Source: an uncultured Myxococcales bacterium
GTDB lineage: Bacteria; Myxococcota_A; UBA9042; CAIXZC01
Assembly (NCBI GenBank): GCA_903895725.1
Contig: CAITUV010000048.1
Coordinates: 8,474 to 72,473 of the forward strand
Direction of reading: 5' to 3'
Length of the DNA stretch: 64,000 nt
Part shown: in pieces, positions 55,101-55,955 of the stretch
Numbering within the stretch: position 1 is the stretch's first letter
How the letters are laid out: the number at the start of each line of letters is the position of its first letter
Translations under genes and position numbers: made by a program
Notes under the pieces: model-generated
Database searches by the model: none
What the model saw: only the letters and a program-made list of their open reading frames with translations
Told to the model about the DNA's origin: nothing

Positions 55101-55955
55101 TGCGACGGCAAGGACAACGATTGCGACGGTCAGACGGACGAGTCCTTCGCCGACCAGGACGGCGACGGCCAGGCAGACTGCGTCGATCTCGACGACGATG
55201 GCGACGCGGATCCGGATGGGACGGACTGTGCACCGCTCGATCCGACCATCGGCTCCAACCAGAAGGAGAAGTGCTTCGACGGCAAGGACAACGACTGCGA
55301 CGGAAGCACCGACGACGATCCGGAGTGCATTCTCAAGAGCTGCGCCGAGCTCCTGGCCTCGAACCCCGCACTGCCGTCGGGGACCTACACGATTGACCCG
55401 GACGGCGGGGGCGGGAAGCCCTCGTTCGCCGCGTGGTGCGAGATGGCGCTGGACGGAGGGGGCTGGACCCTGGTCTGGAAGCACTCCTACTACGAAGTGG
55501 GGGCACCGACGGACACCATGCGCTTCTACAGCACCAGCGCAAAGGAGTGCAAGGACACGACGGCCGGATGGTGCAATGTGCCGGGCAAGCTGTCCGTTGG
55601 CAAGACGCAGCAGCTCGTCATCGCCACCTACCAGGGGACGACCGTTTACGCTTACAAGGGGGACTTGAATCCCAAGATCGACTCGAGCTGGGAAGGCGCC
55701 ATACTCAAGAACGCAACCAGCCTGGTCGACAAGTGCGTCAACAACGTGGGAGTGGCCCCGGAGCCCGAGGTGGGAGGGCATGCGATGCCCGGCATCACGT
55801 TCGACAAGGCGACCCCCAACGACTATGTGTCCAATTGCGATACGGATCGGTACGGAGGGGGCTCGGATTGCCGCTGGGAGAACTGCGGTCTGCCGGGAAA
55901 CATCGCCCCCTCGAGCACTCACGTGCAGATGACCGTGATGATCTACGTGCGCTGA
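52143..55955 (+). CDS. Cys-rich lipoprotein with a thrombospondin type-3 repeat array, seven or so MopE-like [10 protein letters not shown] modules, and a C-terminal fibrinogen-related domain (FReD)
   Basis: RBS GGTGGAGG. '[23 protein letters not shown]'. TSP3: '[30 protein letters not shown]', '[30 protein letters not shown]', '[31 protein letters not shown]'. FReD: '[50 protein letters not shown]...'. Confidence 0.85.
   Translation: [1270 protein letters not shown]
53157..53950 (+). repeat. Thrombospondin type-3-like Ca-binding repeat array (D-x-D-x-D-G-x-x-D-x-C / DNCP-x-x-x-N-x-x-Q-x-D)
   Basis: Motif recognition; see the parent CDS. Confidence 0.7.

Follow-up and report, generated by a model that had tools for sequence, protein, structure and literature searches.

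We analysed a 64,000-nucleotide stretch of contig CAITUV010000048.1 from an uncultured Myxococcales bacterium (hereafter the window), in which a long open reading frame (ORF) encodes a 1270-amino-acid protein that ends in a fibrinogen-like domain. The ORF lies on the + strand with possible starts at 52110 and 52143 and its end at 55955, and public assemblies record the form beginning with the ATG at 52143. The product is modular and rich in Cys (8.3%) and Asp (16.1%). Its parts, together with a paralogous gene downstream, are listed in Table 1. The fibrinogen-like domain comprises the last 205 residues (aa 1066–1270) and ends right at the stop codon. An initial annotation of this DNA had placed a fibrinogen-related domain (FReD) at the tip of a bacterial lipoprotein, at 55323–55952. 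This interval is in frame and corresponds to the last 210 codons of the ORF, and the peptide quoted in its support, [50 protein letters not shown], was recovered exactly as residues 1067–1116 (window positions 55341–55490). The domain does lie at the very C-terminus of the protein, while the lipoprotein status of the carrier is probable, given a plausible lipobox and the recurrence of such signals in its relatives.

Table 1. Features of the gene for the putative lipoprotein and of its downstream paralog, in window coordinates
Feature	Position	Strand	Basis or remark
Whole gene, putative 1270-aa Cys-/Asp-rich modular lipoprotein, stop codon included	52143..55955	+	ORF list
Lipoprotein-type signal peptide [19 protein letters not shown], aa 1–19	52143..52199	+	Read from sequence; putative lipobox Cys19 at 52197–52199
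Acidic Pro/Ala/Glu-rich linker past the putative lipid anchor, aa 20–78	52200..52376	+	Inferred from composition
Cys-rich N-terminal module, aa 79–256	52377..52910	+	tblastn; common to at least four window paralogs
Stalk, aa 257–1055: 13 MopE-type motifs and 5 thrombospondin type-3 repeats	52911..55307	+	Pfam; regular expression for motif positions
A-subdomain and first core strand, aa 1066–1114: SCAELL...[19 protein letters not shown]	55338..55484	+	NF040941, hhalign, PDB profile search
Family-specific B/P-like part, aa 1115–1270	55485..55952	+	Six conserved Cys; terminal strand ...MIYVR
Paralogous putative lipoprotein, 1229 aa, after a 37-nt gap	55993..59682	+	blastp against the 1270-aa protein, E 9e-69

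Beyond a few metagenome contigs, the nearest full-length relatives of the domain are sponge and choanoflagellate proteins, as might be expected if the fibrinogen-like segment were eukaryotic (sponge or protist) DNA misjoined to a bacterial contig, or if the contig had been misassigned. Such an error is seen in L004 (CAXXBX010000262.1, from a 'Dehalococcoidia bacterium' metagenome-assembled genome, MAG), the sole family match in a scan of GTDB representatives with a single C-terminal peptide pattern, one not matched by the sequence of the window itself. This 9.8-kb contig has ~44% GC and very sparse ORFs, and probably represents misbinned DNA from a sponge or another eukaryote, not a bacterial gene. 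In the window, however, GC content is uniform (63–68%) with no break in composition at the gene (65%), and bacterial housekeeping genes (nuoD/H/L/M/N, rhlB, hisG/C/D and purH) flank it, indicating bacterial chromosomal DNA and not eukaryotic contamination. The domain is in frame within one ORF of 1270 codons, and an identical 1270-aa product is encoded on five metagenome contigs from several different samples, the longest being a 174-kb ENA scaffold (ERZ18644181 scaffold_18, sample SAMEA6872877). The record prefix 'BUCK21-1' hints at an origin in the stratified-lake metagenomes of Buck et al. 2021 (PMC8121793), although the sample accession did not turn up in that paper. An independent full-length ortholog (L008) shows 78.5% identity across all 1270 aa and 81% in the domain, and shares both the architecture and the downstream gene. 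Agreement between the five contigs and this ortholog makes a chimeric ORF unlikely. The domain is also under purifying selection, with high synonymous divergence (dN 0.106, dS 0.81, dN/dS ~0.13), and we regard a misjoin or misassignment as effectively refuted.

Extent of the fibrinogen-like homology

The NCBIfam model NF040941 (GGGWT_bact), a 46-position bacterial model named 'fibrinogen-like YCDxxxxGGGW domain-containing protein', was covered in full (positions 1–46) and well above its cut-off of 30, at 64.3 bits for the isolated domain (E 7e-18) and 60.9 bits for the whole protein. The annotation pipeline PGAP would probably assign this name to the protein. In contrast, Pfam Fibrinogen_C (PF00147) remained below its gathering score of 22, with 16.7 bits for the whole protein and 20.6 bits for the isolated domain, and aligned at profile positions 3–48 of 221 only. 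The top Pfam match of the isolated domain was COLFI (PF01410), also below its cut-off (22.8 bits against 26.2) and covering only the shared N-terminal motif. The initial annotation had named the lack of a FReD profile hit as grounds for rejecting its assignment; formally, that lack was found with Pfam but not with NCBIfam GGGWT_bact.

Alignment of the family by hhalign with a profile built for this purpose from 97 canonical FReDs (98.4%, E 6.9e-15, 54% identity) gave 52 confident columns. Comparable lengths were obtained with amphioxus ficolin (53 columns, with FReD homology ending at [10 protein letters not shown]), with another bacterial GGGWT protein (62 columns) and with an approximate ITLN1 sequence (46 columns). 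In searches of the PDB with phmmer and the family profile, matches were restricted to the N-terminal motif, and PDB intelectins covered profile positions 24–77 only. All five tests gave one limit, in that highly significant homology always ended at GGGWTLV(WKH). The N-terminal motif is real and catalogued, and the other ~160 residues are modelled by neither Pfam nor NCBIfam.

If the domain were a canonical Fibrinogen_C domain of the ficolin or FIBCD1 kind, it would be expected to hold a Ca-stabilised pocket in its P-subdomain for acetyl groups such as GlcNAc. With canonical FReDs (PF00147, which includes ficolins, FIBCD1, angiopoietins, tenascins, and fibrinogen beta and gamma) it shares the A-subdomain disulfide, the YCDM...GGGWT core and a C-terminal place in multidomain extracellular proteins, and the match to the A-subdomain, its Cys pair and the GGGWT core is highly significant. 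However, the hallmarks of the FReD P-subdomain, GGWW[YF]xxC of the disulfide loop NCA...GGWW[YF]xxC and the Ca-site aspartates (D-x-D-N-D within FSTxDxDND), had no counterpart in the family on hhalign alignment with the 97 FReDs. In a forced alignment of low confidence the Ca-site Asp positions coincided with a gap or with T/P, and (G)SDC took the place of GGWW; this alignment also set G-I-T-F-D (G-x-x-F-D) opposite the FReD G-x-x-F-S, and C177 and C188 opposite the P-subdomain Cys pair.

Eight cysteines are conserved in bacterial and eukaryotic members alike (91 family domains), namely C12, C44, C81, C89, C143, C177, C188 and C193 in domain numbering. The A-subdomain pair C12/C44 (codons 55341–55343 and 55437–55439) is at least 90% conserved, and the codons of the six downstream Cys start at 55548, 55572, 55734, 55836, 55869 and 55884. 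Canonical FReDs have four Cys, two of them downstream of the A-subdomain pair, and the family therefore carries four additional conserved Cys. The earlier claim that downstream Cys spacing is conserved applies to the A-subdomain pair but does not extend further, since six downstream Cys face two in FReDs and only C177/C188 can be paired, with low confidence. The family also has motifs of its own: WKHSY, GWCNxPxK, PEPE, TFDK, NCDTDRY, DCRWENC and QMT. What survives of the FReD assignment is the fold superfamily, the A-subdomain, its Cys pair and the GGGWT core, whereas membership of PF00147 does not. With the homology confined to about 50 columns and intelectin a better structural match (see below), we consider a canonical FReD very unlikely. 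A ficolin-like GlcNAc site should not be assumed, given the lack of a Pfam FReD hit, the missing P-subdomain hallmarks and the eight Cys.

Predicted fold of the domain

An AlphaFold2 model of the domain, based on an alignment of 59 relatives, had a predicted local distance difference test score (pLDDT) of 93.3 and a predicted TM-score (pTM) of 0.91. Its elements run from a helix and hairpin through a central sheet and a long irregular disulfide-rich segment (~142–207) to a final strand that returns to the sheet. This order corresponds to the fibrinogen-type layout, and the three subdomains of a fibrinogen-like fold could be recognised in the model. Human intelectin-1 was the top fold match (Z 12.4; 180 of 215 residues aligned, 16% identity), followed by the canonical FReDs FGL1, ANGPTL3, ficolin-3, and fibrinogen beta and gamma (8.6–9.6) and by the procollagen C-propeptide (5.4), with all other folds at or below 3.2. 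Foldseek concurred, with XEEL, ITLN1 and lamprey lectin in the lead (TMq 0.55–0.58). As predicted by the model, the domain has the fibrinogen/intelectin fold.

This match could be read as that of a compact intelectin-type (X-type) lectin, in which a bound Ca would chelate exocyclic 1,2-diols of microbial glycans such as galactofuranose (Galf) and ketodeoxyoctonic acid (KDO), as in human intelectin-1. Both the domain and ITLN1 end at a last strand with an aromatic-x-Arg sequence. In common with intelectins and other X-type lectins (ITLN1, 4WMQ; XEEL, 4WMO; lamprey serum lectin, 7E1E), it has the N-terminal Cys pair and GGGWTLV, a C-terminal position and a presumed extracellular binding role. 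Eight conserved Cys form a further likeness, this number being reported for vertebrate intelectins (PMC9682848). Identity is only 16%, however, and profile homology is not detectable past GGGWTLV. The domain is moreover ~70 residues shorter (205–215 against ~280), so that the intelectin-specific insertions are missing, and intelectins are small secreted oligomers, whereas the window domain forms the C-terminal tip of a probable bacterial lipoprotein stalk. An intelectin-type lectin therefore appears unlikely. We would class the domain neither as a Pfam FReD nor as an intelectin, but as a member of the GGGWT_bact class and a distinct variant within the fibrinogen-like fold superfamily.

Distribution and origin of the family

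A metagenome scan yielded more than 444 stretches that encode relatives, and 80 loci were kept; about ten of them match the full-length domain and the rest match the N-terminal GGGWT region only. An exhaustive profile search gave 87 clusters at E <= 1e-30. Close metagenomic relatives with an architecture of bacterial type numbered only four in a word-indexed search. They were followed by dozens of ~170-aa proteins (40–50% identity) encoded on megabase contigs, and some of these proteins belong to the sponges Corticium candelabrum and Dysidea avara. Tandem copies are found in the choanoflagellates Salpingoeca infusionum, Codosiga hollandica and Didymoeca costata, further members resemble protist proteins with Pro/Thr-rich linkers, and small single-domain secreted eukaryotic proteins also carry the domain. 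One bacterial member came from a 'Myxococcales bacterium' MAG.

Bacterial members span about ten lineages, and in at least six of these the domain comes after a lipobox signal, in most cases with a MopE-rich region. Lipobox-type signals are present on the relatives in the high-GC loci L008, L010, L011 and L014 and on P0076. The domain lies at the extreme C-terminus in L010, L011 and L014, preceded in L010 and L014 by MopE-type repeats, and P0076 combines seven MopE motifs with a C-terminal domain. Divergent members are borne by phage-tail-fibre-like proteins (P0202, L015, L017 and L053) that end in ...HIFVK or ...HIYVK and are encoded on low-GC (32–43%) contigs; P0202 matches a tail-fibre PHROG. 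Structural comparison also found the same fold as the distal tip of elongated tail-fibre-like proteins of Synechococcus and Prochlorococcus phages and of Pseudomonas phage PaBG (TMq 0.42–0.56, 12–15% identity), although these are virion proteins and not cellular lipoproteins. That cyanophage tail-fibre-like proteins contain fibrinogen-like folds would agree with the use of this fold for binding at a distal position across the prokaryotic world.

Bacterial FReDs had initially been described as rare. Prokaryotic GGGWT domains are common as a class, with a dedicated NCBIfam model and the many metagenome stretches noted above, but the variant in the window is indeed rare in bacteria. In other bacterial GGGWT proteins (P0060, P0063 and P0067) the sequence after the motif is unrelated, whereas the window variant is the one common to choanoflagellates and sponges. 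Among the proteins recovered were P0067, P0068, P0070, P0082 and P0111, of 1564–4522 aa, with 6–15 tandem units of 200–260 aa that open with a FReD-like Cys pair and GGGWT and continue with unrelated sequence; the N-terminus of P0067 is lipobox-like. These giant multi-repeat proteins were considered as a source of the canonical FReD profile and turned out to be other GGGWT variants. The GGGWT superfamily is far more diverse than current models describe.

In a neighbour-joining (NJ) tree the main bacterial clade was nested among choanoflagellate and protist-like sequences, with the Myxococcales-MAG pair apart. Bootstrap values were poor, at 3–40% (bacterial monophyly had 16–18% and the sister grouping 3%), and we draw no direction of transfer from this tree. 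The patchy distribution of the family makes inter-domain transfer the simplest reading. FReD and intelectin domains are central to innate-immune and matrix recognition in animals, and their origin is usually placed within Metazoa. The present domain is found in three choanoflagellate genera, often in tandem, and is expanded in sponges. We tentatively suggest, as a possibility at less than even odds, that it may form a fourth, so far unnamed branch of the fibrinogen-like fold superfamily in addition to FReDs, intelectins and collagen C-propeptides, and that this branch predates animals and has crossed at least once between eukaryotes on one side and high-GC Myxococcota-like bacteria and phages on the other. 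The locus would then represent a toolkit of eukaryote-type modules for extracellular recognition.

Stalk proteins of the locus and the putative role of the tip

The signal peptide of the 1270-aa protein was compared by eye with the PROSITE-type lipobox rule, to which it conforms. Beyond the linker, the Cys-rich module is 80% identical in L008 and recurs at ~56.2, 3.6, 8.9 and 19.5 kb of the window (tblastn; 36–44% identity, E 1e-30 to 3e-40). In the stalk, Pfam detected Cu-binding_MopE (178 bits, 13 stretches) and TSP_3 (94 bits, 5 stretches). About six tandem units of 51 aa (153 nt) occupy aa ~681–986 (window ~54183–55142, + strand), and every unit is composed of a CxGxDNDCDGxxDE motif and a [ST]CGxGxCxH hairpin motif. 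The model for MtsC-type thrombospondin-repeat cohesion proteins (NF047638) scored 136.7 bits against an equivalog threshold of 350, and through the TSP3 repeats only, so that likeness to these proteins is limited to the stalk.

The downstream paralog has the same N-terminal module, Dicty_CTDC repeats (Pfam) and a C-terminal tip at ~58846–59679. By phmmer against the PDB, this tip is homologous to the extracellular TNF-like and glycine-rich domain of ALK and LTK (ALK 7mzy, E 4.4e-17; LTK, E 7e-14; C. elegans SCD-2, E 5e-6); Pfam gave no match for it. The gene pair is kept in L006 and L008, and the two genes are probably co-transcribed. A different metazoan-type tip on a related stalk suggests that the stalk proteins of this locus carry exchangeable tips.

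Three giant ORFs on the + strand (3335–8614, 8616–13661 and 19066–24651; 1759, 1681 and 1861 aa) carry MopE motifs and have the Cys-rich N-terminal module in common with the 1270-aa protein, and searches with their last 500 residues found no sequence relatives in the PDB and no Pfam domain. They may form with the 1270-aa protein a family of stalk proteins with differing tips. An ORF at 15046–18195 (+, 1049 aa) has Dicty_CTDC repeats and a C-terminal FGE-sulfatase (formylglycine-generating-enzyme-like) domain. Another, at 59697–63998 (−, more than 1433 aa), leaves the window and has MopE motifs, two DUF4214 domains, Big_7, a Dicty repeat and DUF5648; its borderline internal MYXO-CTERM match (20.4 bits against 20) hints at a Myxococcota-like host. 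Upstream of the lipoprotein gene, 54 nt away, lies a gene (49920–52088, +) for a secreted phosphodiester glycosidase of the NAGPA type that carries a Golvesin domain at its C-terminus. We considered this glycosidase as a conserved partner and rejected it, as it is absent beside the ortholog in L008.

Taken together, we propose, with a probability of roughly 0.7, that the gene encodes a lipid-anchored surface protein of a high-GC bacterium with a stalk of ~800 residues, and that its C-terminal domain of the fibrinogen/intelectin fold, a separate family with eight Cys, is the distal ligand-binding tip. In the arrangement we envisage, the lipobox signal would be followed by the acidic linker, the Cys-rich module, the disulfide- and Asp-rich MopE/TSP3 stalk and finally the globular tip of 205 residues. 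The protein would be exposed at the surface, its stalk would bind Ca, and its tip could act as a lectin or adhesin that binds carbohydrate or another surface ligand on other cells or matrix. The lectin or adhesin role is suggested by analogy with FReDs, intelectins and phage fibre tips of the same fold, which act in this way.

Several points weigh against this proposal. Position −3 of the lipobox is Ser, which is atypical. The Ca-site aspartates and GGWW of the FReD P-subdomain are not conserved, and the ligand-binding chemistry may for this reason differ from that of every characterised relative. The closest PurH to the one encoded in the window (45839–47428, − strand), among 5.8 billion proteins, is only 60% identical, which points to a host from a poorly sampled lineage. 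Lastly, the procollagen C-propeptide, an oligomerisation module, is a structural relative of the domain.

The last point could mean that the domain serves mainly in assembly, like the C-propeptide of fibrillar procollagen, and either oligomerises the stalk proteins or docks a partner such as the neighbouring paralog. Trimers are the functional form of ficolin FReDs and of human intelectin-1, COLFI is the top Pfam match of the isolated domain, and the conserved pairing of the gene with that of a paralogous stalk protein might reflect a complex. The COLFI score is nevertheless below cut-off and comes from the shared N-terminal motif only, the Z of the C-propeptide structure (PF01410; 5K31) is much lower than that of intelectin or FReDs, and there is no collagen context, the stalk being devoid of the collagen or coiled-coil repeats for which a nucleating trimeriser would be required. 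The eukaryotic tandem copies and small single-domain secreted proteins also fit a binding unit better. We therefore hold a principal role in assembly to be highly improbable and favour a distal ligand-binding tip.

The finding is a domain-level variant of a known fold, and its distribution and ALK-like neighbour make it somewhat more than a plain FReD match. It locates what is probably the functional end of a giant stalk lipoprotein and, together with the neighbouring ALK/LTK-like tip, points to modular surface proteins. It also exposes an annotation gap, as ~160 conserved residues lie outside every Pfam and NCBIfam model. A sister family with eight Cys in choanoflagellates, sponges and bacteria offers a handle on the pre-metazoan history of the fold and on the inter-domain transfer of recognition modules. 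Should the domain prove to be a fourth branch of the fold, bacterial lipoprotein stalks would be carriers of eukaryote-type modules, which might serve in contact with eukaryotic cells.

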